A stretch of DNA of 58,746 nt from a virus (IMGVR_UViG_3300050029_000207:1-58746), one strand, 5' to 3'; positions 2,730 through 58,746 are shown, counted from the first letter of the stretch. Numbers and translations are program-made. Notes: generated by a model from the letters alone, not told the origin.

Positions 2730-3026
2730 ATGAAAATAAAAATACCGGCGGTGGAAAAAGAAGTCTGCGACATATGCGGACGCGATGGAATACTTGAAAC
2801 ATGCGTGGTGTGTGGAAACCGATACTGCCTGATCTGCCACTGCTATCTTCCGGGCTGCATGGTGCGCCCCGACGTGTGCAAGAAGTGCGACAGCCGCGCC
2901 GACGTGAATCAAATCTCGAAACGCTTCGGGCTGCTCATCCACGACCTATGCAAACAGCGCGAGGCCGAACTGAAACAACTAGCACCTAACAATGTTATTA
3001 GGCCAAACCCGGAATCAGATCACTAA
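2730..3026 (+). CDS. multi-CxxC zinc-binding protein (attI-proximal cassette cargo)
   Basis: CDIC, CVVC, CLIC, CKKC; reads through ACCTAAC into attI-like site. Confidence 0.75.
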   Translation: MKIKIPAVEKEVCDICGRDGILETCVVCGNRYCLICHCYLPGCMVRPDVCKKCDSRADVNQISKRFGLLIHDLCKQREAELKQLAPNNVIRPNPESDH

Positions 3027-3027: not shown

Positions 3028-3309
3028 ATGAAATACTGGCGCACAAGTGGTTATCGAAAGGCAGCAAGGCGAAGAGGGATTGAGGCTTACTATCGCAAAA
3101 AGGCAGCGTCGGAAGCCATTCCTGAAAACGAAAATGTGTGCAAGCCGAAAATTCGCCACTCATTGAAGACGATTTTGAAATTCGACCATGAACCGCAGAT
3201 GACTTTGACCGTTGACATTCTGCCGTGGGGCGGCTGGTCAATTTCTCCGACGGCAATCGGGAAGAAAATTCAACAGGCCATGATCGGCTATGCTGCTACC
3301 GCCGCCTGA
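3028..3309 (+). CDS. basic hypothetical protein occupying the usual intI position
   Basis: ATG 2 nt after previous stop; 93 aa; no tyrosine-recombinase motifs. Confidence 0.6.
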   Translation: MKYWRTSGYRKAARRRGIEAYYRKKAASEAIPENENVCKPKIRHSLKTILKFDHEPQMTLTVDILPWGGWSISPTAIGKKIQQAMIGYAATAA

Positions 3310-3406: not shown

Positions 3407-3438
3407 GACCGGCGGCATCTCACCGCCGGTCTTTTTTT
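3407..3438 (+). terminator. rho-independent terminator where the two genome arms converge
   Basis: GACCGGCGG-catctca-CCGCCGGTC-TTTTTTT. Confidence 0.85.
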
Positions 3439-4575: not shown

Positions 4576-5070
4576 TCATTTTAGTAATTCCGGCCAGCGG
4601 TCGGGAACTTGAGACATAAATTGCGCGTGGTATTCCTTGAGTGTGGCAACCTGTTTCGGGTCGTGCCGATCCCATACAAATCCACCACCAGCCCGGACGC
4701 TCGCATAAATTGAATTGCGCGTGATCCATGTCGCCCCAAGCTCCTGTAGCGCGTCCAATAGAATCCAGTCGCAATCCTTGCGCGGGAACATTTCGGACGC
4801 ATACAGCCAATCGTGGAGCACATAGGCTGGGGCGTAGCGACCGTCCTTACGGTAGATATTTTGGAAAATCTGCGGGATGCTGCCATAGTCGGTTTCCCAT
4901 ACCGGACATATCACCATTTCCGGCAAGGTGCCAAGGCTCGACGGCGGGACGATGATCCTTGAACCGTCCGGCTGAACACTGGCGAACGGCTCTTCGAGCA
5001 ACCAGGTGTCGCCGTCGCGGAGTTCGATTGTCTCCGGCATCGTTAAAAAATCTGGTGAGTAGAGGAACAT
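4576..5070 (-). CDS. DUF1353-family protein
   Basis: TDYGSIP...AYVLHDWLY...DCDWILL...YASVRAGG. Confidence 0.8.
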   Translation of the reverse strand: MFLYSPDFLTMPETIELRDGDTWLLEEPFASVQPDGSRIIVPPSSLGTLPEMVICPVWETDYGSIPQIFQNIYRKDGRYAPAYVLHDWLYASEMFPRKDCDWILLDALQELGATWITRNSIYASVRAGGGFVWDRHDPKQVATLKEYHAQFMSQVPDRWPELLK

Positions 5071-5073
5071 AAA

Positions 5074-5397
5074 TCATTTGGCCGGCGGTTCCGGCGACAC
5101 CTTCAAGCTATCCGTCACCGACTGCGTGCGCGTGATGAATTGTGTGTCATCCCCGAACTGTCGTTCAACTTTTTTCGCAGCGCGAGAGAAAAACGCGAGC
5201 ATCGTGTTGCCCCAACTTAAGAACACCGCCAGCCACATCATTAATTTACCTTGCGTATCCATCGTGGAATAGTTTGTGTTTTGCAGCGATGCGAGAACTG
5301 CGCCGGTCAACGAGGTTGCCGTGAAGAAACAAAACCACGCAATCGCCATCCGCCATTCGATTATGGCCAGCTTTGCTTTGTTGATTTGGTCGCTCAT
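5074..5397 (-). CDS. putative holin
   Basis: 107 aa, two hydrophobic segments, charged C-terminus, end of late arm. Confidence 0.5.
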   Translation of the reverse strand: MSDQINKAKLAIIEWRMAIAWFCFFTATSLTGAVLASLQNTNYSTMDTQGKLMMWLAVFLSWGNTMLAFFSRAAKKVERQFGDDTQFITRTQSVTDSLKVSPEPPAK

Positions 5398-5939
5398 GGT
5401 TTTGACATCAACTTCGCCTCAATCAGCGACAACCGCTTATCGCTGTCAACCGTTCCGTGCGCGTTGATGTGGCTGATTAAAATCTCCAACGCTTCAAGTT
5501 TTGATTCGATTAACTCCACCTTGGTTGACGTAGCTGTGAATTTGTCGTTCTGCACCAGCACAGCAGCCGCTATTTTGCCGGCGGATTCCGCCGTCCGATC
5601 CACGTCCGCTTTCAACGCCTTGAGGTCCGAAGCATTGGACGCAACCTTGTCATTTTGAATCAAAACCGCCGTGGCTAATTTATCCGCCGACATTGCCGCA
5701 CGTTCGACATCGGCGGAAATAGGATGGATCGCCGCCGCCCACAGGCACCCAATGAGCGTCAGCAAGAAACCACAAAGCGCAATCAGCGTCATCCAATCCG
5801 TCTTGCCAGAGCGGTTGAGCGAGTCCTGAATGTCGCGCAGTGCTTTCCACATGCCGGTCAATTCCACGGTGATGTTATCCACCTTGGTCTCAACCTTTGT
5901 CAGCCGTTCGTTCCCTTGATTCGTTTCCATAATTTCCAT
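5394..5939 (-). CDS. coiled-coil membrane protein (lysis region)
   Basis: ERLTKVETKV coil, one TM, internal repeat (AVLIQNDK/AVLVQNDK). Confidence 0.6.
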   Translation of the reverse strand: MEIMETNQGNERLTKVETKVDNITVELTGMWKALRDIQDSLNRSGKTDWMTLIALCGFLLTLIGCLWAAAIHPISADVERAAMSADKLATAVLIQNDKVASNASDLKALKADVDRTAESAGKIAAAVLVQNDKFTATSTKVELIESKLEALEILISHINAHGTVDSDKRLSLIEAKLMSKP

Positions 5940-6028
5940 AATTTAGTTTTCCGGTTGCGCCGCCTGGTAATCAAGCAGTGGTTTGGGTTGCTGTTGAACG
6001 TGCATCGTTTCTTTTTGGGCTTCATTGC

Positions 6029-49031: not shown

Positions 49032-49412
49032 TTATTGAAAGAATTGTTTTAAATCTGGCTTCGAATACAACTTGCTCTTCATGACCTTTCCATCGGGTGC
49101 GAAGATTGGTTTTCCGTTTTCATCGAGCTTGGACATATTCGAGCGGTGAACCTCATTAAACGCTGAATCCTTCAAGAAGGCAAGCCCAAATTGAAGAAAA
49201 GAACCCTCCACGACATATGTTATGTCAACTAGCGCGTCAAGAACCCCGACAACATCATCAGCTTCCAGCGCTTCACGGAGTTCGTCAATCTCTTCCTGGA
49301 TGAGCCGCACGCGCAATAACTGTGTCTTCTTGTCGCTGAGAGTTGGGTGAGGTTCATTCTTGACGCCGAAAGCGTCGTGGAACTCGCGGACTTGTTCGAT
49401 TGTTGATTTCAT
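49032..49412 (-). CDS. MazG-like NTP pyrophosphohydrolase
   Basis: VREFHDAF, IQEEIDEL, DALVDITYV, EVHRSNMSK, DGKVMK. Confidence 0.9.
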   Translation of the reverse strand: MKSTIEQVREFHDAFGVKNEPHPTLSDKKTQLLRVRLIQEEIDELREALEADDVVGVLDALVDITYVVEGSFLQFGLAFLKDSAFNEVHRSNMSKLDENGKPIFAPDGKVMKSKLYSKPDLKQFFQ

Positions 49413-49432: not shown

Positions 49433-51106
49433 TCAGCTCGGTTCTGGCTGACGAGAGCGTTCATTAATAGTCATCGTTGCGCCGTCAAAGTTGCACAACA
49501 CTTGCGTTCCTGCGCCGCCCTTGGTGCAAGCGAGCACGTCCATCAGCATGAGAGTTTGGTCGTCTTGGCCTCCGCGCGACACGCCAATCACCAATCCTGC
49601 GCTGCTCTCGAAGCTGCCAGAGTCTTTTGCCGAGTGTAGTGACGGCTTGTAAGAATGGTCTTGCCCAGACGGGCGAGCAACTTGGGAGCAGGCAACAACT
49701 ATCGTGTTCGTAACTTTCGCAATCTCCTTCATGGACTCTCCGACATGGGTCGCTTGCTCGTATTTTGTTCCGCCGCTACCCTTCATAAGCTGGACATAAT
49801 CAACAAGAACCAACCTTGGTTTTTCGCCGAGCATCAGTTCGCTTTTTAAGACTAGCTGTTCCAATCTTTCTGGTTTCAGCCGTGCCTCTGGGCATATGAT
49901 TATGTTTGGAAATGACTTTTCCAGAACGTCTCGTCCCAACTCATCACCTTCGGCATAAGTCTTCTCGACAAGCCCGCACTTCATCTTTCCGTGCATGGCA
50001 ACAAAACGCTCAAATAGAAGTTCTTTTGGAAGTTCCATTTGGAAAAACAATGTTTTCAAACGCATGGCGCGATAACAGAGATTTTGCAAAATTGCAGTCT
50101 TTCCGATCTTGGTGTCTGCCACAAACAGGGCAAATTCTCCTGGGACCAACGGTCTGATCTTGCCTCGGAAGGTCGGAAGCCACTCGCCCAAGTCCAGCTG
50201 AACATCCCTAGACGCCCTGACCATGGCTTTGTAATGAGGCTCGATGTCAGCGAGCGAATACAATGGCATCTTAATTCCGCCATAATGCGGAACGGCAGCC
50301 GACAAAAGTTCTTCAATGGCCGGTTTCGAAGAACCATTTTTATTTTTGTCAGCTATAAAATCAGAAATGTCCTTGTTGCCTGCTGGCAACTTGATCAAAC
50401 GGACAGACTTGGCTCGTTCGGACACTGACGCGAACACCTTTTCGACATGGTCTTGTCCCGGTTTGTCAGCGTCACCGCAAATTACCACTTCTTTACCACC
50501 CAACTGGTCGCTGTAGGCGTCTAGCCATTTTCCCGCACCGCCTACGTTGGTCGTGGAACAAAACCCGTGCAAGGCTAAAATGTCAGCGTCTTTTTCGCCT
50601 TCCACGATCCAGACCTGCGTTGCCCTGGCAACTTCCGGAGCACGATAAAGCACCCGTTCCACACCGGCCATATTCCAGAGCCAGCCGCCATGGCCGTCGG
50701 AACGCCGCTGACGGAATGTTTTGGAATAGCCGCACGCCTTTGTGGCGTCAGGCGATTGGTAGCGCAATGCCTGAAAAACAACCTTGCCAAACTTGTCGGT
50801 GTAATCGTAGGTTGCCGTCAGCACCGCGTTCGCCTTTGGTTCTTCCAGCGGCAATTCAGTTTTGTATTTTGGAGCGAAGTCCTTTTTTGGAGTTTCAAAA
50901 AACAAGTCCTTGACAGTTATGCCGAGAGACGCTGCGATCTCCGGAACGGAGCAGCCGGCAAAACACTTTAGCACAACGCCGTTTCGGCCTGGTGCGACAG
51001 ACAGAGACGCAGACCCGTCCTCGTGAGCCGGACAGCGCACCATGAAGTTGCCCTTGGTCGCCGGTTTGGCATTGGGGAACTTGCTTATGAAGTCTGGGAA
51101 GGTCAT
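49433..51106 (-). CDS. primase-helicase (Zn finger + TOPRIM + DnaB-like)
   Basis: CPAHED..CFAGC, IVEGEKDA, GDADKPG, DTKIGKT, LVDYVQL, CSQ. Confidence 0.92.
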   Translation of the reverse strand: MTFPDFISKFPNAKPATKGNFMVRCPAHEDGSASLSVAPGRNGVVLKCFAGCSVPEIAASLGITVKDLFFETPKKDFAPKYKTELPLEEPKANAVLTATYDYTDKFGKVVFQALRYQSPDATKACGYSKTFRQRRSDGHGGWLWNMAGVERVLYRAPEVARATQVWIVEGEKDADILALHGFCSTTNVGGAGKWLDAYSDQLGGKEVVICGDADKPGQDHVEKVFASVSERAKSVRLIKLPAGNKDISDFIADKNKNGSSKPAIEELLSAAVPHYGGIKMPLYSLADIEPHYKAMVRASRDVQLDLGEWLPTFRGKIRPLVPGEFALFVADTKIGKTAILQNLCYRAMRLKTLFFQMELPKELLFERFVAMHGKMKCGLVEKTYAEGDELGRDVLEKSFPNIIICPEARLKPERLEQLVLKSELMLGEKPRLVLVDYVQLMKGSGGTKYEQATHVGESMKEIAKVTNTIVVACSQVARPSGQDHSYKPSLHSAKDSGSFESSAGLVIGVSRGGQDDQTLMLMDVLACTKGGAGTQVLCNFDGATMTINERSRQPEPS

Positions 51107-51891
51107 ACCGCGTAAAATGGACGGTTGGCCTTGTCGAGATCACAGAGTTCGTTGCGAATTTCATTCAAGGCGTCTGCGAAACCGTGCAACGACACGGATC
51201 GTTGTCGCAGAAATGGCGATTTCAACCTTGACCATGCCGCGACCGCTGTCCTAATCAATACAGCGGTTCCCAGGCCACCTTGCAAGAGCTTCTTTACAGC
51301 CTTGCCGTCTCTGCCGCCGTTGAACGAATAGGGAACGCCGTGTGCTTTCAAGTATTCGTCCGTCCACTGTTTTATAAACACAGCGTGCTCCGACGGCGTT
51401 TTGGTTTCAGGAACGGCGTCTGCGCAAGCAGAAACTTCTTTCTTCTTCTTCTTTGGTTCTTCTTTCTTGGATAGTTCTTCTTCCGGTATAGTTCTTCTTA
51501 AGTAGGCCGCGCTCCCGTTCGACGGCTTAGGGTCGCACGGGTCAGCCGCTGACGGGGTGGGGCTTCCAGACGACTTTCCGTCCTCGGCGGCGTTCCCGGC
51601 TGAATCGAAGAACGTCCAAATGCAGTCCGTTAGCCCAGTGGCCGCGTTTCCGACTCGGTGAAAAGTCACATAGCCGAACTTCTTAAGTTCGCCGAGTGCG
51701 CCACGAATTGCGTCACGGCCTTCAGTTCCTTGCCCCTCAAGCCATCCGGCTGTGACATTCCAGTCTTCGCGGTTGGTCAGAACCATCGCAAGAACACCCC
51801 TCGCTTTGAATGAGAGCCTTTTGTCCCTGAGCATTTCGTTTGGAAGAACCGTGAAGTTGGCGGAGAGTTTCCGCCGAATTATCGTAGCCAT
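51103..51891 (-). CDS. replication initiator/replisome organiser (wHTH)
   Basis: NFTVLPNEMLRDKRLSFKARGVL...GRDAIRGALGELKKFGYV. Confidence 0.8.
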   Translation of the reverse strand: MATIIRRKLSANFTVLPNEMLRDKRLSFKARGVLAMVLTNREDWNVTAGWLEGQGTEGRDAIRGALGELKKFGYVTFHRVGNAATGLTDCIWTFFDSAGNAAEDGKSSGSPTPSAADPCDPKPSNGSAAYLRRTIPEEELSKKEEPKKKKKEVSACADAVPETKTPSEHAVFIKQWTDEYLKAHGVPYSFNGGRDGKAVKKLLQGGLGTAVLIRTAVAAWSRLKSPFLRQRSVSLHGFADALNEIRNELCDLDKANRPFYAV

Positions 51892-52048
51892 AAATTCCAA
51901 AAAGAAAACAGCAGCCGAGCGGAAGCGAGAAAAGGTCGGGCGGTGCGGTTGCCCATTGCTTCCAAACGACTGCTGCTTAAAACAAAAAGCGCACCAATTG
52001 ACCATTCGCTGTTTCTCGCAGCGGCCAACCTTTTCGGTTGACGGCTAA

Positions 52049-52077: not shown

Positions 52078-52189
52078 CAAAATTCCGCAAAAATGTTTGC
52101 AACGCCTGCTTTTCGCGCTTTTTCTTGAAAAGTATTTCCTTGCAAATCAGCCACTTGCGTCCGATTTGAAAGATTTGTGAAAATAGTTC

Positions 52190-52218
52190 TTGCCTTCTTG
52201 AAGGGTTTGAGCGATACT
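52190..52218 (+). promoter_or_regulatory. rightward promoter TTGCCT-N17-GATACT heading the cassette arm
   Basis: 17-nt spacing, AT-rich upstream, 50 nt before first plus-strand ATG. Confidence 0.65.
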
Positions 52219-52268
52219 GATCACGTTGAAGGCAATTCCGCTCTCAACGAACAAAATAAAAACTGATT

Positions 52269-52535
52269 ATGAAAACGAACACGAACGAAAAGACAAACCT
52301 GAAAGCAATCCAAACTGAAATGATGGCTCGCCGCCGCGAACTGATTGACGCGCAAAAGAAGCAGGGTGGAGGATGCGGCGCAATCCAACTCAAGTCTGAC
52401 AACCTGCTGTTCTGCTACAATCCGAACCGCACCGAAAGCAAGACCAACCCGCTCGGCGAAAAGTTCTATGTCACCGGGACAATGAACGGATGCCCGGTCA
52501 TCGTGAATGAGTTCACAATCTACGAGGCCGCATGA
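52269..52535 (+). CDS. hypothetical early protein
   Basis: A-rich leader; ATGA coupling. Confidence 0.65.
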   Translation: MKTNTNEKTNLKAIQTEMMARRRELIDAQKKQGGGCGAIQLKSDNLLFCYNPNRTESKTNPLGEKFYVTGTMNGCPVIVNEFTIYEAA

Positions 52536-52726
52536 AGAACCAAGCCGCTCAATCCCTCGGACGCCTTGGCGGTCTGGCGAAGTCGAAAGCCAAGACTGCT
52601 GCCGCGCGTCGGAACGCAAAACTTGGTGGACGCCCGAAGAAACCCAAACGCGCCGCCCGGCTGCCCAACGACCAAGCTCACCCCACTGCCGCGAAAGCGA
52701 GCGTGGACGGCACTGAAAATCTATGA
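52532..52726 (+). CDS. small basic phage protein
   Basis: AAQSLGRLGG..KS.AKTAAARRNAKLGGRPKK; C-terminal tail encoded by attC. Confidence 0.7.
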   Translation: MKNQAAQSLGRLGGLAKSKAKTAAARRNAKLGGRPKKPKRAARLPNDQAHPTAAKASVDGTENL

Positions 52727-52790
52727 GTGAAACCAAAAGCATCGAATCGGAAACGCTAGCGGCAGTTGCGGGTGCAGCGCGTGGTTCGGC
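52663..52790 (-). mobile_element. attC: attC site (distal end of array)
   Basis: GCCCAAC-GACCAA-GCTCACC...GGTGCAGC-GCGTG-GTTCGGC. Confidence 0.85.
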
Positions 52791-52995
52791 TCACCGCGAC
52801 TTCCTCGCATTCCTTCTCTACGCATCGGAAAGCGGTCGGCGTGGAGAACTCCCGTGCCGATGGGGAACGCTGCGCGACGACCTGAAAGAGAAGTGGCTGA
52901 ACACCGCAGACACGAAAATGAACGAATGGCTGGCGAGCGAAGAAGAAGCCCGCAAGAGCAGAGATGCCCATAATCCGAGGGCGTTCTTCTGTTGA
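52723..52995 (+). CDS. hypothetical protein (cassette cargo) starting inside attC
   Basis: ATG in attC loop; stop immediately before next core. Confidence 0.7.
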   Translation: MSETKSIESETLAAVAGAARGSAHRDFLAFLLYASESGRRGELPCRWGTLRDDLKEKWLNTADTKMNEWLASEEEARKSRDAHNPRAFFC

Positions 52996-53120
52996 GCCGA
53001 ACGACCAAGCTCACCCACAGCCGGGTGAGCGGGCAACCAACTGAAACCAAATCTTTATGACACCAGAAACGAATAAATCCGAAGCGCCACCGGCTGTTGC
53101 GGTGCAGCGCGTTGTTAGCC
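52996..53120 (-). mobile_element. attC: attC site
   Basis: GCCGAAC-GACCAA-GCTCACCCACAGCCGG...CCGGCTGTTGCGGTGCAGC-GCGTT-GTTAGCC. Confidence 0.9.
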
Positions 53121-53275
53121 CTCGCTGCCCCCAATGTGGCAAACCAATCGAAACACCTGTGGCGAGAGAAATCACGCAGCGTGATAATCGAAGCCCACGT
53201 GGAATACGGACAAATCGATATGACTTTTGTAGCGTCCAATGCGGGGCACACTACCAAATGGGATGCGAGGGCTAA
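53057..53275 (+). CDS. YacG-like zinc-finger protein (cassette cargo) starting inside attC
   Basis: CPQCGKPI...DFCSVQC; stop in next core. Confidence 0.7.
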
Positions 53276-53320
53276 TCGCAGAGTCCAGCCATGCCGGGCC
53301 AGTGACGCCCGGACTCGGCT
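53270..53320 (-). mobile_element. attC: degenerate attC left arm
   Basis: GGCTAAT-CGCAGA-GTCCAGC-CATGCCGGG; no partner arm nearby. Confidence 0.55.
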
Positions 53321-53410
53321 ACATGACATGCGCCTCCCCTACCACTATATTTACTGGCACCAAAACCTGCGTGCCGCCAACCAACAACAAATCCTTTTCG
53401 CAATGTTTTT

Positions 53411-54169
53411 ATGAATATCAAAATCAATTCAGTCTTCGGTTCGCTGAAATTCGAAGGTGACTTCTCGTCGCTGAAAGAATGCGTTATGGCCGCGATTAAA
53501 AGCGATGCCAACCTGCGCGATGCCAACCTGTGCGGTGCCAACCTGTGCGGTGCCAACCTGTGCGGTGCCAACCTGTGCGGTGCCAACCTGTGCGGTGCCA
53601 ACCTGTGCGGTGCTGACCTGTGTGGTGCCAACCTGTGTGGTGCTGACCTGTGCGGTGCCAACCTGTGCGGTGCCAACCTGCGCGATGCCAACCTGCGCTA
53701 TGCCAACCTGTGTGGTGCCAACCTGTGTGGTGCTGACCTGTGCGGTGCTGACCTGCGCGGTGCCAACCTGTGTGGTGCTGATCTGTGCGGTGCCAACCTG
53801 CGCGGTGCTGACCTGTGTGGTGCCAACCTGTGTGGTGCTGATCTGTGCGGTGCCAACCTGCGCGGTGCTGACCTGCGCGGTGCCAACCTGCGCGGTGCTG
53901 ACCTGCGCGGTGCTGATCTGTGCGGTGAGAAAATTAAAACCGCGCGAATCTTCGCGGGATTGTATCGCTATCAAGTATATGCTATTTTGAACACTAAAGG
54001 TCAACGGTTTGTGAAGATGGGCTGCTTATTCAAGTCGCTTGAGGAATGGGAAAAGGTTGGAATCCTTGAATCGAACCTGGCCGAGTTCCCGAACGACGGC
54101 TCGCGCAAAAGCCTTGAGCGCAAAGAAGCATTCGACTTTGCGAAGAATGCAGCCCTTAACCTTGAATGA
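53411..54169 (+). CDS. pentapeptide repeat protein
   Basis: tandem A(N/D)L(C/R)G repeats, 15-bp period at ~53505-53926. Confidence 0.95.
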
Positions 54170-54567
54170 TTATGAAACTCCGCCTCAACAAGCGCACCCT
54201 CGCCGACATGCCGACGCCGGTTCGCTCCCTCGTCACCGAATGGCGCAACCGCTGGCACAAGACCTTCATCAGCGTCTGCACCCGCACCGAGTTCTGCCCC
54301 GGTGAAGACGCCAAGGTCATCATGATCAACCTGCTGACCGGTGCCGCCGTTCAGCAGCGCGTTGCCGGCGAATGGGCGGGCGTGACCCGGCTGTCACCTA
54401 CGGACAACATCCCCCTGCCGGAAGGCTGCGTCGCTGTCGTGACGGGGATCTTTATGGGTCACCCTTGGCTCACCGTTTATCAGGGTGCGCCGGGTGCGGT
54501 GGCGAAACTGAACAATGAACCGTTAAAGATGGAAGGCGCAATGATTGCGTGCCCGGCGGAAAGTTGA
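54166..54567 (+). CDS. hypothetical protein
   Basis: ATGA overlap, coding-like codon usage. Confidence 0.6.
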   Translation: MIMKLRLNKRTLADMPTPVRSLVTEWRNRWHKTFISVCTRTEFCPGEDAKVIMINLLTGAAVQQRVAGEWAGVTRLSPTDNIPLPEGCVAVVTGIFMGHPWLTVYQGAPGAVAKLNNEPLKMEGAMIACPAES

Positions 54568-54568
54568 A

Positions 54569-54868
54569 ATGAAAGTCAAATACTTTTCCCTGACCGGAAG
54601 CTTCGAAGGCGGAATGAAGATCCGAGGCCGCTGGGTTTATGTAACCGACCTGAGCCACGTTGATAAAACCGGCTGGGAACGAATCATGACCGGCGATATG
54701 ACGCCGGCAATGGCAGGGTGCCTGAAGTGCGCCTCGATCACCGCCGGAACCGCCATCAGATTTTACGAACACGGACCAATTTCGCCGGAGTTTCCTAATC
54801 AGTTCTCCGGCACCGCCAGTGGCCCAATTCCGACCGTTTCGGCGGCGGGCGCTGGCGGGTTAATTTAG
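54569..54868 (+). CDS. hypothetical protein
   Basis: ATG 2 nt after previous stop. Confidence 0.55.
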   Translation: MKVKYFSLTGSFEGGMKIRGRWVYVTDLSHVDKTGWERIMTGDMTPAMAGCLKCASITAGTAIRFYEHGPISPEFPNQFSGTASGPIPTVSAAGAGGLI

Positions 54869-54878
54869 AAAGAAAATC

Positions 54879-55361
54879 GTGAATAAAACCTCCAAAACCG
54901 CCTCCCTCTCCGCCTTGCCGTCTAAAATGACGCAGGCGGAGCCGGAAGCGCCAACCGCCCCAACGTCACGCCTGGCCAATTTGGACGCCTTGGATAGCCT
55001 TCCAGGAGCCTCGGCGACCGCCCCGGCCTTCATGGAAGAGTTTTACGAGCTTGTCGGCACCGAATGGAAGTGCCGAGGGGTGATCCCGAGGGCTGCCGGC
55101 CAAATCACCGACTGCGAGAATTGCGGCGGAAGCGGATTTTACGCCCACGGAGAAACGGATCACCCAATTCAGCTTCAGTGCAGGTTCTGCGGCGGCTGCG
55201 GAAAGACTGAGCGGAGAATTTGCTGGGAGGGGAAGCTTGAATACGACCTGACCGAGCCGCTGACTGTTCAGCGCTGCTTCCAGGATTACGTCATCAAGGC
55301 CAGCGTGAAGAAGCCGGCAAGGGTGAGGGCGATACTTTTGCCGCTGACGATGGAGAAATGA
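54879..55361 (+). CDS. protein with DnaJ-type CxxCxGxG zinc motifs
   Basis: CENCGGSG...CRFCGGCG. Confidence 0.6.
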   Translation: MNKTSKTASLSALPSKMTQAEPEAPTAPTSRLANLDALDSLPGASATAPAFMEEFYELVGTEWKCRGVIPRAAGQITDCENCGGSGFYAHGETDHPIQLQCRFCGGCGKTERRICWEGKLEYDLTEPLTVQRCFQDYVIKASVKKPARVRAILLPLTMEK

Positions 55362-55365
55362 ATTT

Positions 55366-55545
55366 ATGAACAAATCTGAACTGATAGACCAATCCAACGC
55401 CCTCTACGGCCAGCTTGAGAAAGCTCGCCGCATGAACGACTACGATTCCGCGCAGGCTATCTGCGATAAGTTGTCACAGGTGAATAAGCGGCTTCACCTG
55501 ATTGAACTTCAGGAGGCGGCGGAACGCGATGGGAAAATAATGTAA
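55366..55545 (+). CDS. small helical protein (59 aa)
   Basis: MNKSELIDQ...; fills the gap between neighbours. Confidence 0.5.
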   Translation: MNKSELIDQSNALYGQLEKARRMNDYDSAQAICDKLSQVNKRLHLIELQEAAERDGKIM

Positions 55546-55553
55546 GAAAGACC

Positions 55554-55582
55554 TTGCCTTTTGAACTGGAAAGAGGTTTAAT
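55554..55582 (+). promoter_or_regulatory. promoter TTGCCT-N17-TTTAAT
   Basis: shares CTTGCCTTYTTGAA with the 52190 promoter. Confidence 0.6.
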
Positions 55583-55624
55583 TGAGGCTGTCATTCGAAA
55601 CCGCATCTTAAGCGGCCATTGAAA

Positions 55625-55813
55625 ATGAAAAATCAACTCGGCATCCGCCAACAAATCGAGAAGGCCTCGTCAGCCGCTGAAATTCAGCTGCTGATTACTG
55701 AGGCACACACCTACAAGAAGATCTCAACCGCAACGCTGAACGGCATCAACCGGACGGCGGACAAGCGGCTGAAGGAACTTACAACGCAGTCAACCAAGAA
55801 AGGAAAACAGTAA
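55625..55813 (+). CDS. hypothetical protein
   Basis: first ORF after promoter. Confidence 0.6.
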   Translation: MKNQLGIRQQIEKASSAAEIQLLITEAHTYKKISTATLNGINRTADKRLKELTTQSTKKGKQ

Positions 55814-55814
55814 T

Positions 55815-56603
55815 ATGTCCCGTAGCAATCCTCAGCAACAATTAACTCACCCAAGCCGCTGCTGGTTTGAGGTGAATGGTGAAACCGGCCAAATCTTCCA
55901 TTACGACCGAGAGCAGAAGAAGAAGATCAATCACGACCTGTCATTCGTGTTCATTTTGCTCGACGAATTATCCGTCATCAAGGGCTGGCACGAGGCCTCG
56001 GAGTCCGGCATCACCAGCAATGAAGTCCGCGACACCCGGCAGGAGGTCTTCGTCGTCAAGGCATTCAAGGGCGGAATCATCGCCAGCGGCCACTATAACT
56101 TCATCAAGGATAAGGTTGCGGCGCAGGGCGGCAGTTATCATTCCAACCTCTACATCGCCTTCAAGGACACGGACGGCACTCTTGCCATCGGTTCACTGAT
56201 GCTGCGCGGTGCGGCGCTGTCGGCCTGGTTTGAGTTCCGCAAGAAGAACCGCAGCAATACCGTCGAGGTCGCCGGCAAGAAGGTCTCCGTCCTTTACGCC
56301 AAGGCAATCTGCATCAAATCATTCAGCGAAGGCAAGAAGGGCAGCATCAAATTCAAGTATCCTGACTTCAGCCTGTCGGAGATCAAGCCGGAAACGAACG
56401 AGCAGGCCATCGCCCTCGACCGCGAGCTTCAAGAGTTCCTGACCGCCTACCTTCAGCGGAACAAGGCGGAAGCGGCTGCGCAGCCGACGCATGAAGGCGT
56501 TCAGGAGGATCCAGTGGTCGGCAATCAGGAGGCTCCCGAGCCGGAACCGCCGAGCAAGCCGGAACCGCAACCGGAGCCGGAAGACGGGGATGTCCCGTTC
56601 TAA
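55815..56603 (+). CDS. putative single-stranded DNA-binding/annealing protein
   Basis: acidic Pro-rich tail ending DGDVPF; upstream of exonuclease. Confidence 0.65.
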   Translation: MSRSNPQQQLTHPSRCWFEVNGETGQIFHYDREQKKKINHDLSFVFILLDELSVIKGWHEASESGITSNEVRDTRQEVFVVKAFKGGIIASGHYNFIKDKVAAQGGSYHSNLYIAFKDTDGTLAIGSLMLRGAALSAWFEFRKKNRSNTVEVAGKKVSVLYAKAICIKSFSEGKKGSIKFKYPDFSLSEIKPETNEQAIALDRELQEFLTAYLQRNKAEAAAQPTHEGVQEDPVVGNQEAPEPEPPSKPEPQPEPEDGDVPF

Positions 56604-56690
56604 GCAACTTCCCTCGCCTGACCGCATACTGCTTAACGGCTCGCCCGCGTGTGCGGAACGGGTCGGCGGCAGGCGAGGGGATCAATTTAT

Positions 56691-56782
56691 GAGCGTGTGG
56701 CGGAATGCAAATACGCAGCGGCAAGCTGAGTGTGGACCGGATGCCGGAACACCAATTGCAGGTTCAAATCCTGCCGCGCTCA
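56691..56782 (+). ncRNA. tRNA-like RNA without canonical anticodon arm
   Basis: acceptor GAGCGTG/CGCGCTC-A, D-arm GCG..CGC, T-arm GCAGG-TTCAAAT-CCTGC. Confidence 0.7.
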
Positions 56783-56801
56783 CCCTTTGAAACAAAAAAA
56801 A

Positions 56802-57686
56802 ATGAAAATAACAAACAAATTAAATCTACCTGATAACCTCGTCCGCGCCGTCACTTACAGCGACTACAACCGGGGGGATGTTGATTATAGCGTAACGGGT
56901 CTTCTTAACCCGCCACGAATCCTTGCGCTGAAGGCCAAGCATCACGACAAGATCGAAGAGGACGCCAGCGACCTCATATTCGCCGCCATCGGCTCGGCAG
57001 CCCACGAGCTTTTCCGTCGGTCGTCTGACGGCATCAACAAGATCGTTGAAAAGCGGTTCTTCGCAACCGTTGACGGCAAGAAGATCAGCGGTCAGGTGGA
57101 CTTGGCTGAAGACGGCGGCATGATAGAGGATTTCAAGATTTCATCCGTATGGGCGATGACTCACGACGCCAAAGAATCTTGGGAACAACAACTTAACATT
57201 TACCGTTGGCTGTGCAAGCAGAACGGAATCGAGATTAAGGCGTTGAGAATCATTTGCGTTGGCAGGGACTGGTCAAAACGCGAAGCGGCTCGAGATTCAA
57301 ATTACCCCCAGGCGCAGGTGGTCGTGTTCAACCTGAATGTCTGGGACTTGGCCGAAACCGAACGCTTCATCAAAGAGCGCATTGCGCTTCACGAGGCGGC
57401 CAAGGTAACGCTGCCGGAATGCTCCCCTGAAGACCGGTGGCAAAAGGATGACGCCTTTGCAGTGATGAAGGTTGGAAGGAAGTCAGCCGTCAAGATTCAC
57501 CACAAGCGCGAACTGGCGGATCAGCACCTAGAAGTCGCCGGAAAGGGGCATTACCTTCAGGAGCGCAAGGGGACCAGTATCCGCTGTGAGAGCTACTGCT
57601 CGGTGGCACCATTCTGTGAATGGTGGCAGAACAACAAGCTTAAAGAAGATCCGGCAACGGTGATTAGTCCGGAAGAAGCTATCTGA
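56802..57686 (+). CDS. PD-(D/E)XK (Cas4/RecB-like) exonuclease
   Basis: YSVTGLL, IGSAAHE, ISGQVDL, IEDFK, QQLNIY, RCESYCSVAPFC. Confidence 0.85.
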   Translation: MKITNKLNLPDNLVRAVTYSDYNRGDVDYSVTGLLNPPRILALKAKHHDKIEEDASDLIFAAIGSAAHELFRRSSDGINKIVEKRFFATVDGKKISGQVDLAEDGGMIEDFKISSVWAMTHDAKESWEQQLNIYRWLCKQNGIEIKALRIICVGRDWSKREAARDSNYPQAQVVVFNLNVWDLAETERFIKERIALHEAAKVTLPECSPEDRWQKDDAFAVMKVGRKSAVKIHHKRELADQHLEVAGKGHYLQERKGTSIRCESYCSVAPFCEWWQNNKLKEDPATVISPEEAI

Positions 57687-57742
57687 ACCGCGAAGCGGAA
57701 CTGAAGGCGCTATCGGCGGTTAGCTCCATGCGGTTGTTGGGC
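57684..57742 (-). mobile_element. attC: attC right arm only
   Basis: TGAACCGCGAAGCGGAACTGA...GGCGGTTAGCTCCATGC-GGTT-GTTGGGC, homologous to right halves of intact sites. Confidence 0.7.
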
Positions 57743-57765
57743 TGGCGCGACTGCGATACACGAAA

Positions 57766-58215
57766 ATGAAAACGAAAAAAGTCAACCGATATTACTGCGA
57801 CTTCTGCAAGAAATCGAACTGCTCTGGCGGCGCGATGGCTCTCCACGAAAGACACTGCACGCTCAATCCAAACCGGACGTGTCGTATGTGTAAAGAACCT
57901 CGCAACATACCAGAACTGGTGAAGCTGATTCCGAGTGCTGAACAGTTCCACAAAACCACAATAGACCACGGCGAAGGATACGGCTCTTGCAACTGTGACC
58001 ACTATGAAGGATGGGGCGATACCTACAAAGAACCGCTCCAAAAAGTGCGTGATGCCTGCAATGAATGTCCGGTGTGCATCTTTGCTGTGCTCAGGCAATC
58101 AAAAGTGCCAATCTACATCTTTGACTTCGACTTCAAAAAAGAGGTCGAATCATGGTGGGCTGAAAAGAATGAAGAAGCACGCGAACAGGAAGAATATGCG
58201 GCAATCCACGGATGA
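57766..58215 (+). CDS. multi-Cys zinc-binding protein (cassette cargo)
   Basis: YYCDFCKK...HERHCTLNPNRTCRMC...CPVCI. Confidence 0.75.
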   Translation: MKTKKVNRYYCDFCKKSNCSGGAMALHERHCTLNPNRTCRMCKEPRNIPELVKLIPSAEQFHKTTIDHGEGYGSCNCDHYEGWGDTYKEPLQKVRDACNECPVCIFAVLRQSKVPIYIFDFDFKKEVESWWAEKNEEAREQEEYAAIHG

Positions 58216-58227
58216 CGTGACCGCGCA

Positions 58228-58326
58228 GCCTAACGAAAAAAGCTGAGCCACCGCCGACTCGCGACGTGAACCGCGATAGCGGAACTGACAGCGCCAACGG
58301 CGGTTGGCTCCGGCGACTTGTTAGGC
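58228..58326 (-). mobile_element. attC: attC site
   Basis: GCCTAAC-GAAAAAA-GCTGAGC...GCTCCGGC-GACTT-GTTAGGC. Confidence 0.95.
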
Positions 58327-58346
58327 CATGGCTCAACGAACAAAAT

Positions 58347-58544
58347 ATGAAAACACTGACTGATACCGACCCGATGCCCTTCGGAAAATACAAGGGCGAA
58401 CCAATGCAAGACGTGCCTGCGAGCTATCTGCACTATCTCTGGCAGAATGGCCTCGCCGCCGACAAGCAATCTAACGTGGCGGACTACATCCGCCGAAACA
58501 TAAACGCTCTGAAATTGGAGCATAAAGATGGTGTCTGGGCGTAG
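58347..58544 (+). CDS. DUF3820-family protein (cassette cargo)
   Basis: MPFGKYKG..MQDVPASYLHYL. Confidence 0.85.
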   Translation: MKTLTDTDPMPFGKYKGEPMQDVPASYLHYLWQNGLAADKQSNVADYIRRNINALKLEHKDGVWA

Positions 58545-58558
58545 TGGCCTAACAAAAA

Positions 58559-58746
58559 ATGAAAACCGAAAACTCACGCCGATACAAATGCGTCCAATGT
58601 GGCGCAAAAGGTCGGCACTCAAAATCTGGCCGGAATAATCCGCCTATCTGCCCGCAGTGCAAATCCGAACTCCGGCAAATGAGCACGCTCTGGTCAAAAT
58701 GTCCTAAATGCGGCATCAGAATAATGAACAGCGTGGCCGCGATGCC
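58559..58746 (+). CDS. triple-CxxC zinc-ribbon protein spanning the circular junction (stop at 141-143)
   Basis: MKTENSRRYKCVQCG...CPQCK...CPKCG...MPSEKS*; missed by ORF track; preceded by isolated core GCCTAAC 58547-58553. Confidence 0.7.
   Translation, partial: MKTENSRRYKCVQCGAKGRHSKSGRNNPPICPQCKSELRQMSTLWSKCPKCGIRIMNSVAAM

Follow-up and report, generated by a model that had tools for sequence, protein, structure and literature searches.

Why should every gene of an integron-like cassette array stand on the strand opposite to that of ordinary cassettes? The question is raised by the accessory operon of IMGVR_UViG_3300050029_000207:1-58746 (the window, that is, the whole stretch of DNA analysed, 58,746 nt), a complete circular phage genome whose bases 1-127 are an exact repeat of 58620-58746 (127-nt direct terminal repeat) and whose IMG/VR record class is virus with direct terminal repeats and 100% completeness. 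In integrons the integrase (IntI) recombines the bottom strand of the attC sites, so that promoterless genes land in sense with the cassette promoter Pc. The genes of this phage lie on the minus strand from ~3.5 to 52.0 kb and on the plus strand from 52.27 kb across the circular junction to 3.31 kb, and the plus-strand accessory operon runs from ~52.2 kb over the junction to a terminator at 3407. We consider it probable that this operon holds an integrase-less cassette array (a cluster of attC sites lacking an integrase, CALIN) built on attC sites of a host family, with the strand of the cargo mirrored and the classical attC/attI geometry kept.

Each full site, read on the plus strand, consists of RYYYAAC, spacer, GCTGAGC(C), loop, (G)GCTCCGGC, spacer and GTTRRRY, and the repeat consensus in the plus-strand block is RYYYAAC, spacer, GCTGAGC, loop, GGCTCCGGC, spacer, GTTRRRY. 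The inverted core boxes RYYYAAC...GTTRRRY around an imperfect palindrome with L boxes were present in 9/9 sites, the left box of 125-232 being degenerate (GCCCAGC). All nine full sites, two in 52663-53120 and seven between 58228 and 2703 across the junction, are on one strand. A covariance model (CM) was built from an alignment of 46 non-redundant host attC sites whose canonical orientation was set by the IntI genes. It recovered the nine sites at E <= 2.2e-5, all on minus, with 30 to 122 bits; matches on plus were limited to four of the nine and did not exceed 15.6 bits. The sites, together with two truncated arms, are as follows.

52663-52790, minus: attC, long variant, loop holding the start codon of the open reading frame (ORF) at 52723 (CM 30.3 bits, E 2.2e-5)
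52996-53120, minus: attC, long variant, loop holding the start codon of ORF 53057 (CM 33.6 bits, E 3.3e-6)
57694-57742, minus: truncated attC at the left border of the main array, consisting of the L''/R'' arm with right box GTTGGGC (repeat D3)
58228-58326, minus: attC, 99 nt, identical to a host chromosomal attC (CM 122.1 bits vs 15.6 on plus)
125-232, minus: attC, 108-nt variant with TAAAATCTATG in the loop (CM 77.7 bits)
233-286, minus: truncated attC arm, right box GTTAAGC (repeats D8/D13)
900-999, minus: attC (CM 46.7 bits)
1328-1427, minus: attC (CM 35.9 bits)
1826-1924, minus: attC, 99 nt (CM 113.4 bits vs 9.8 on plus)
2185-2296, minus: attC with compensated L-box changes (CM 56.2 bits)
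2596-2703, minus: attC, 108-nt variant (CM 79.6 bits)

The truncated attC at 57694-57742 shares 76% identity with 58278-58326 and is overlapped by a weak CM match at 57590-57726 (13.6 bits, E 0.34). A degenerate attC lies at 688.

The relation of these sites to bacterial ones is close. Site 58228-58326 has eight letter-for-letter copies in the fetched host loci (L001-L120, arrays in metagenome-assembled genomes (MAGs) of Verrucomicrobiae). A 20-base piece of the right arm occurs exactly in at least 120 bacterial contig stretches, often in many copies per 8 kb. Nearly every listed stretch is labelled Verrucomicrobiae, Limisphaerales or as another member of Verrucomicrobiota. Where a locus had at least three copies of this 20-mer (29 loci), the copies were always co-stranded. 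Two host MAGs, G001 and G002, carry beside such arrays six IntI genes scoring above the TIGR02249 cut-off (307-413 bits), and IntI genes are placed at, for instance, G001:C3:195119-195958 and G002:C7:923545-924468. The inner helix of the 46 host attC sites showed two-sided changes in 5/6 pairs, with 99.1% of its cells paired against 92.8% in shuffles (0/500 equal) and at most 47% when the partners were slid. By these likenesses the phage sites are of the same family as those of the hosts' large chromosomal integrons, and the shared sites point to a tailed-phage genome whose hosts are apparently Verrucomicrobiae.

The G001 arrays apparently extend over tens of kb, adjoin the IntI genes and reach 19 attC per 8 kb (contig C3 at ~197-256 kb, L008, L023, L109 and L098; contig C2 at ~688-720 kb, L096, L102 and L001). 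Several MAGs labelled Bifidobacteriaceae (L002, L012, L014, L037, L045, L056, L072 and others) also bear a Verrucomicrobiae-type attC array, and their label or binning is doubtful.

The sequence-only reading from which this work started had taken an asymmetry of the L boxes to place the canonical top strand on minus. The asymmetry is real. Plus-strand folds of 58228-58326 and 125-232 begin on the outside with an unpaired spacer, followed inwards by a 1x2 internal loop, a stem of 6 bp and a bulged T. The extra bases are on the 3' arm, the first of them beside a T.G wobble; on the minus strand the same extrahelical features land on the AAC arm. According to Nivina 2016, the recombining bottom strand has the R' 5'-AAC-3' triplet on the arm opposite the extrahelical bases, with one such base within L'' and a T 6 bp further in, and is favoured by G:T mispairs. 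The phage sites depart slightly from the usual attC pattern, the inner extra base being C/G beside a T.G wobble and no lone G. Site 2596-2703 formed the spacer and the 1x2 loop, its inner stem being absent from the minimum-free-energy fold, and the weaker sites folded less cleanly. The host loci gave the same orientation: in 20/20 loci with IntI and upstream attC, the attC top strand is opposite the IntI coding strand and the array is 5' of intI, a classical divergent layout; the 20-mer, which the phage has on plus, is carried in the hosts by the coding strand of IntI. Fold structure, host IntI geometry and the host-derived CM thus all bore out minus as the canonical top strand, an assignment that had been staked on a covariance model not placing the canonical orientation on plus. 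Since the CM matches favour minus and the extrahelical positions agree with them, the phage plus strand is predicted to be the recombining bottom strand of the attC sites; recombination itself is a prediction.

Two further strand discriminators were tried and dropped: folding energy, which as DNA is -24.6 vs -24.8 kcal/mol for the two strands, and purine skew of the attC plus strand, which is 54% vs 56% in the surrounding array.

Coding strand was then analysed with a codon model trained on 17 long minus-strand genes of the phage itself. In-frame coding was the best class for 19/22 plus-strand ORFs; 16/17 minus-strand ORFs scored as non-coding, most of them as the antisense of coding sequence, and 10/10 held-out genes scored as coding. 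The exceptions on plus were the small Cys-rich ORF 53057, the pentapeptide-repeat gene and ORF 55625, which was scored in the wrong frame. Together with the PHROG and Pfam matches these results uphold the claim that every cargo ORF is on plus. The word "cargo" itself fits the attC-bounded genes; the genes of 53411-57686, among which no attC is interspersed, are more aptly termed phage backbone. The attC-associated genes and the ORF that follows them are listed here.

52269, 52532, 52723 and 53057 (starts), plus: operon genes, the only attC-associated ones of 52269-57686
57766-58215, plus: Cys-rich cargo ORF of 149 amino acids (aa), in frame by the codon model, with 26 relatives on viral contigs
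58347-58544, plus: DUF3820/QSregVF_b-like cargo ORF (PF12843, 4.9e-8, on the longer frame 58266-58544; codon model)
58559-58746, crossing the junction and ending at ~142 in the L box of 125-232, plus: zinc-ribbon-like cargo ORF, from its translation
308-751, plus: cargo ORF, 147 aa, its last residues encoded by the degenerate attC at 688, with 110 metagenomic relatives
915-1346, plus: cargo ORF, 143 aa, called by the codon model, no family match in Pfam or PHROG
1454-1831, plus: cargo ORF, 125 aa, stop TAA inside the next RYYYAAC box (phrog_32023, 3.3e-45; codon model)
1952-2140, plus: cargo ORF, 62 aa, weakly positive in the codon model
2218-2601, plus: cargo ORF, 127 aa, start in the attC 2185-2296 and stop TAA in the next RYYYAAC box (codon model)
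2730-3026, plus: last cargo ORF, 98 aa, Cys-rich, reading through the attI-like site (ORF list; codon score ~0)
3028-3309, plus: basic ORF, 93 aa, at the position of intI in the hosts and in viral locus L125, no Pfam/PHROG match

The zinc-ribbon-like ORF 58559 has an 82% identical segment in viral locus L123. Homologues of ORF 3028-3309 with 45-50% identity are found in viral loci L122 (5163-5429) and L133 (10633-10854), each after a lone RYYYAAC box; a metagenome protein scan with ORF 3028-3306 gave no relative. Two start contexts, AAAATCTATG and AAAAATGAAAAC (proteins beginning MKT), recur in the array; their positions are 156-166, 745-750, 1944-1954, 2151-2163, 2627-2637, 300-320, 1446-1466, 57763-57780 and 58556-58575.

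The ends of the array and the pairing of its boxes give the order in which the cassettes are joined. In a shifted pair the right box of a site is complementary to the next left box but not to its own. The following pairs were found (coordinates of right box and next left box, sequences as on plus).

52790 and 52996, plus: GTTCGGC with GCCGAAC
53120 and 53270, plus: GTTAGCC with GGCTAA|T
999 and 1328, plus: GTTAGGC with GCCTAAC, own left box GCCGAAC
1427 and 1826, plus: GTTAAGC with GCTTAAC
1924 and 2185, plus: GTTAGGC with GCCTAAC, own left box GCTTAAC
2703 and 2984, plus: GTTAGGT with ACCTAAC, an exact complement

Cassettes that are cut and joined at their core should leave shifted boxes of this kind. 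The sequence-only reading had counted the shifted complementarity as evidence of polarity: it is real, in 6/6 informative neighbour pairs, and it is strand-symmetric, so that by itself it says nothing on polarity. What gives polarity is that the right ends of the arrays (53270, 58547 and 2984) are lone RYYYAA|C boxes fused to other sequence. The features at the ends of the arrays and of the operon are these.

52189-52202, plus: promoter-like motif CTTGCCTTCTTGAA at the operon head, in a divergent intergenic region, function putative
53270-53276, plus: lone RYYYAA|N half box, read from the sequence, that contains the stop codon of ORF 53057 and probably closes the first small array
2984-3003, minus: attI-like simple site, ACCTAAC|AATGTTATTAGGC on plus, the predicted attI-proximal end of the array
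3407-3438 (stem 3407-3431), plus: intrinsic terminator ending the operon, 9 bp, 8 of them G-C, then a T run

Host arrays end at attI with GCCTAAC|ATTGTTAATAAAC beside intI (L139, L141), and ~16/20 bases of 2984-3003 are alike, counted by eye. The attI position proposed earlier agrees with this resemblance and with the pairing of its box with the last attC, its activity being predicted; the attI-like end is at the 3' end of the operon, which fits the suggestion that the cassettes are read from the distal end. Among the transcription signals claimed at the outset, the terminator at 3407 is strong, and the promoters at 52190 and 55554 are not established, the sigma-70 scan having called neither. 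The 14-nt motif CTTGCCTTCTTGAA has four copies in the genome against 0.14 expected (0/100 shuffles reached four), at 52189 on plus and at 49171, 45941 and 38021 on minus. Each copy has the orientation of the local genes that follow it, and the motif is a candidate promoter or operator of the phage. The 55554 site is, by eye, a variant of this motif one base shorter.

Coding strand was also compared between host and viral arrays. Among viruses the 20-mer was found in 16 stretches (L121-L136) of 14 records, in which the CM placed 70 sites, on one strand per locus. The coding strand was called in three ways. By longest ORF between nhmmer sites, the 327 host intervals (108 loci, 440 sites, one locus, L076, having one site on the other strand) were 247 top, 33 bottom and 47 ties; the 30 viral intervals were 18 bottom, 4 top and 8 ties, and the five of this phage 4 bottom and 1 top. 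In a start-adjacent census, which counted ATG-started ORFs of at least 45 aa beginning within 70 nt of a core box, hosts gave 211 top, 17 bottom, 56 both and 46 none of 330, viruses 17 bottom, 2 top, 6 both and 5 none of 30, and this phage 2 bottom, 1 both and 2 none of 5. Fisher tests of hosts against viruses plus this phage gave p = 2.7e-14 (longest ORF) and 1.1e-16 (start-adjacent). With CM sites, the 53 viral intervals were 31 bottom, 7 top and 15 ties by longest ORF, and 46 bottom, 4 top and 3 none when the codon model was applied to the longest ORFs. The mirrored polarity is therefore general to viral contigs with this attC family, in contrast to the top-coded hosts.

Among the viral records, two are complete genomes with terminal repeats, a third reaches 94% completeness, and 3/14 gave a phrog_2 terminase match. 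The viral loci have little in common with one another beyond pentapeptide repeats; a relationship of this phage with G308 and G310 was considered and dropped, as their common high-scoring segment pairs are pentapeptide repeats only.

One viral record, L125 (G307), the contig of which also carries a terminase-like match, is the only one with an IntI-like gene (5006-5983, 263.6 bits against a cut-off of 265). On one strand it has, in order, phage ORFs, three attC with bottom-coded cargo, GCCTAAC|AGTAAAATATAG and, 22 nt on, intI; the junction was also read as CCTAAC|AGTAAAATA followed by intI, with the cargo ORFs and intI co-stranded. The L125 locus thus reads, from its sequence, as a classical arrangement of attC, attI and intI in which the cargo is flipped, and cargo and integrase would form one co-directional unit.

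In the arrangement that we propose, every phage cassette gene, unlike those of host cassettes, lies on the attC bottom strand, so that each attC is the 5' leader of its gene, which ends at or in the next RYYYAA|C box. The array would be transcribed by read-through from phage promoters distant from the attI-like end and not from a Pc at attI. As the attC family is shared and one site is identical to a host site, the host IntI could plausibly act on the phage cassettes in trans; it would excise, insert and shuffle them, and would add new ones at the attI-like end, the one distal to the promoters.

The leader position of the sites also bears on the strongest alternative, in which the orientation was selected for a role in RNA: bottom-strand attC hairpins would act as intercistronic mRNA leaders providing start codons, stops, coupling or processing sites, and recombination would be secondary. 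Start codons in attC loops (52723, 53057 and 2218, and TAAAATCTATG in the 108-nt variants) would suit such a role, as would the several ORFs that end in the next attC, a host DUF4326 cassette (L138) that also begins inside an attC loop, and the greater frequency of long attC variants (> 102 nt) in viral arrays (22/30 cassettes of L121-L136 vs 91/327 host cassettes). However, identical 99-nt sites serve top-coded host cassettes, and the strands fold about equally as DNA. The length class of the attC was likewise dropped as a predictor of coding strand within hosts, being weakly linked to it (8%, 16% and 15% bottom). We regard selection for an RNA role as rather unlikely to be what set the orientation, although this explanation is compatible with the cassette array proposed above and not exclusive of it.

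Less likely still is that the polarity was selected to expose the recombining strand. Here the attC bottom strand would be the lagging-strand template in replication and the non-template strand in transcription, which would favour hairpin folding and fast exchange within a short infection; the argument presumes genes co-directional with replication and transcription. Richard 2024 (PMC13108822) places the bottom strand on the leading-strand template in chromosomal integrons, and one of its headings states that inversion of the Vibrio cholerae array markedly raises recombination. In the phage the cumulative GC skew has its minimum at ~52-54 kb, beside the replication-initiator gene at 51103-52005, but this skew is slight, and gene strand confounds it.

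The attC sites could also be passive debris, left by one illegitimate capture of a piece of a host integron, with dead sites and accidental co-orientation. The phage has no integrase, the arms 57694-57742 and 233-286 are truncated, the site at 688 is degenerate, and metagenome scans gave no variant of the phage with other cassettes at the attI-like end (a scan for the attI-side 23-mer returned 0 stretches). Against this, the cargo is of phage type and not host cargo read backwards (phrog_32023, the 26 viral relatives of 57766, at least 79 viral loci for the 308 family), the rare R-box variants pair with their neighbours wherever informative, the same mirrored polarity recurs in the 16 viral loci, which share little else in the fetched stretches, and one site is still identical to host sites. 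Debris is for these reasons an improbable account of the array. Finally, the idea that the real genes are canonical and on minus, the plus ORFs being chance frames in G+C-rich DNA, has long minus ORFs to appeal to, such as 1828-2448 (206 aa), but that ORF crosses two attC and scores as antisense of coding, nearly all minus ORFs fail the codon test, and the plus ORFs have PHROG, Pfam and metagenome relatives, so that this reading is already contradicted and deserves almost no credence.

Several observations count against the mirrored cassette array itself. The genome has no match to tyrosine recombinases (PF00589) or integron integrases (TIGR02249) anywhere along its length, and both candidate promoters (52189, 55554) fail the sigma-70 scan. 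Among the sequencing runs looked up for 52200-58600, none of RNA was listed. Two junctions are unmatched (233-286 to 688 fails; 57736-57742 to 58228 agrees at 6/7 positions) and the main array opens on the left with a truncated attC; because of this edge and the unmatched boxes, some of the array may be in decay. One attC family, selected by the exact 20-mer of the right arm, underlies both the CM and the censuses. The codon model is phage-trained, and on hosts it called 201 top, 71 bottom and 55 none of 327, where ORF length called 33 bottom. In addition, 238 viral array ORFs, with attC masked, matched the fetched host loci via IntI only, and the proteins of 1454, 57766, 2218 and 915 were not found in 301 host-order genomes.

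Host integrons do hold bottom-coded cassettes, as a minority. Some of the flagged host intervals are insertion sequence (IS) transposases or translated attC, and an automated look at bottom coding in the attI-proximal cassettes of 20 host loci was too noisy for counting. Other flagged intervals are real genes. In G002 a DUF4326 and a zinc-ribbon gene are attI-proximal in two integrons: the bottom-coded DUF4326 gene is L138:702-1136 (1.2e-24), which starts in an attC loop and ends at GCTAAC|AGGTATTCGG beside intI, and the zinc-ribbon ORF, L141:1007-1201, is flanked by an attC and the attI junction. For the inverted ORFs of L141 and L072 no viral relative was convincing. In L047 and L027, attC sites are followed on the bottom strand by AAAATGAAAAC-type leaders, as in the phage, and the recurrent start-context leaders of the phage occur there in the same position. 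IS transposase-like ORFs of 451-494 aa are found between host attC at L020:5712-7196, L096:4198-5622, L047:2874-4229 and L047:4931-6286.

The sequence-only reading had called for a search of Verrucomicrobiota integrons for inverted cassettes homologous to the phage ORFs. The search was positive once, for one of five cargo proteins and in one of 301 genomes of the order of G001. The homologue of 308-751 (107/133 identical, 80%, E 2e-82) lies on a 2,363-nt MAG contig (L173), bottom-coded between two attC that the CM placed on the opposite strand; the contig is short and mis-binning is possible. Its array also has a lone GGCCTAAC|AGAATATATTG box and a top-coded SMI1/KNR4 (SUKH-1) cassette (2.4e-15). 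At the DNA level, phage and L173 are alike only between the right core box and the RYYYAAC box that follows it, the flanking attC bodies being unshared, and the protein tails diverge exactly at the RYYYAAC box. By these boundaries, the phage and the MAG array appear to share one cassette. A single-sequence scan with the 308 protein gave no close viral relative, and tblastn of the phage cargo against the fetched host loci gave one weak 35-aa match. The 308-751 family occurs in at least 79 viral loci, with attC of this family nearby in 0/79, and the 57766 family had such attC nearby in 0/27 viral loci. As both families are common in viral contigs without attC of this family nearby, the cargo looks like ordinary phage genes turned cassettes in this phage-host system.

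As IntI fixes orientation via the bottom strand, a phage cassette inserted at a host attI would point to intI, antisense to Pc, and the inverted examples observed in hosts have this predicted orientation. A wider scheme can be put forward tentatively, as possible and short of favoured: ordinary phage accessory genes would form a mirror-image pool whose cassettes are moved between phages and host chromosomes by host attC and IntI, and which in hosts would be either silent, a cost-free reservoir, or antisense, a record of past phages with possible interference. The pieces cited for it are the 33/327 bottom-coded host intervals, the DUF4326 and zinc-ribbon genes at attI and the L173 copy of 308-751.

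Comparison with described systems places the array as follows. Under the CALIN rule, as given in Cury 2016 (IntegronFinder; PMC4889954), at least two same-strand attC lie within 4 kb with no integrase nearby; here the seven sites at 58228-2703 and the two at 52663-53120 are on one strand, with no integrase. A complete integron has intI beside attI, where the phage has ORF 3028-3309, without family match, and no PF00589/TIGR02249 gene. In classical cassettes the cargo is on the attC top strand with the attC 3' of the gene; the phage cargo is on the bottom strand. CALINs and integrons in phage genomes have already been published by Qi et al. 2023 (PMC9892861). The phage CALINs of that paper are alike in having at least two attC, no IntI, small accessory cargo genes and bacterial-type attC that are expected substrates of bacterial IntI; they differ from the present array in its larger size, in the mirroring of 9/9 sites relative to the genes, in the attC identical to a host chromosomal repeat and in the attI-like end. 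The literature searched contains no statement of bottom-strand cargo in phage arrays, in a coverage outside which stand Supplementary Tables S1, S2 and S4 of Qi 2023, which could bear on the point.

Sedentary chromosomal integrons, such as the Vibrio cholerae superintegron and the G001/G002 arrays, have species-specific attC repeats. The phage array resembles those of G001/G002 in its attC family (99-nt consensus, R and L boxes, extrahelical bases, covarying inner stem), in co-oriented sites one gene apart and in an attI junction RYYYAA|C followed by A(T/A)TGTTA. It differs in that the hosts have IntI divergent from mostly top-coded cargo, whereas the phage has no IntI and bottom-coded cargo directed toward the attI end. 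Some promoter-bearing toxin-antitoxin cassettes sit in reverse orientation. Toxin-antitoxin cassettes of chromosomal integrons have promoters of their own, according to Richard et al. 2024 (PMC13108822). They share with the phage array expression independent of Pc; they are single exceptions in top-coded arrays, whereas the phage array is wholly reversed and apparently relies on external phage promoters. In the inverted integron-integrase group (e.g. Treponema), as described in Cury 2016 (PMC4889954), intI shares the orientation of the attC sites. Integrase and cassette genes are co-directional there, as in L125. However, L125 and 20/20 host loci keep the classical orientation of intI, opposite the attC top strand, and in L125 it is the cargo that is flipped; the present phage, having no intI, does not belong to this group.

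The same recombination sites, identical sequence included, serve two gene pools on opposite strands, host genes on top and phage genes on the bottom. If the host IntI acts on both pools, phages would gain modular swapping of accessory genes, probably for host takeover or anti-defence, and chromosomal integrons may store phage genes unexpressed by the host. The origin of cassettes could then be studied where phage families occur with and without attC, the 308 and 57766 families being cases in point. Annotation is affected too: ORFs of phage arrays would be miscalled by tools that expect cargo on the top strand.

Elsewhere in the genome the following features were identified; the primase-helicase, clamp and replication-initiator genes are also minus-encoded.

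minus: portal (phrog_113, 1.8e-39)
minus: large terminase, TerL (phrog_2, 9e-26)
minus: DnaE-type polymerase (phrog_405, 1018 bits)
53411-54169, plus: pentapeptide-repeat gene (Pfam Pentapeptide, 1.9e-45)
54166, 54569, 54879, 55366, 55625 (starts) and 55815-56603, plus: operon genes, backbone-like, from the codon model
56802-57686, plus: exonuclease (phrog_2139, 1.4e-48)

The 53411-57686 block also has a match to phrog_6706 (9e-51), and AT skew is above zero in the plus-strand block only. At 56691-56782 on plus an Rfam tRNA match (34.9 bits, gathering score 29) was found, in which ARAGORN called no tRNA; this tRNA-like element adjoins the exonuclease gene on its upstream side and overlaps the long frame of that gene. 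It is the sole Rfam match in the genome, Rfam having no attC family. The pentapeptide-repeat gene is made of ~26-28 tandem 15-nt units of the A[ND]LCG type, and pentapeptide-related genes are the sole similarity of viral loci L126 and L129 to this phage.

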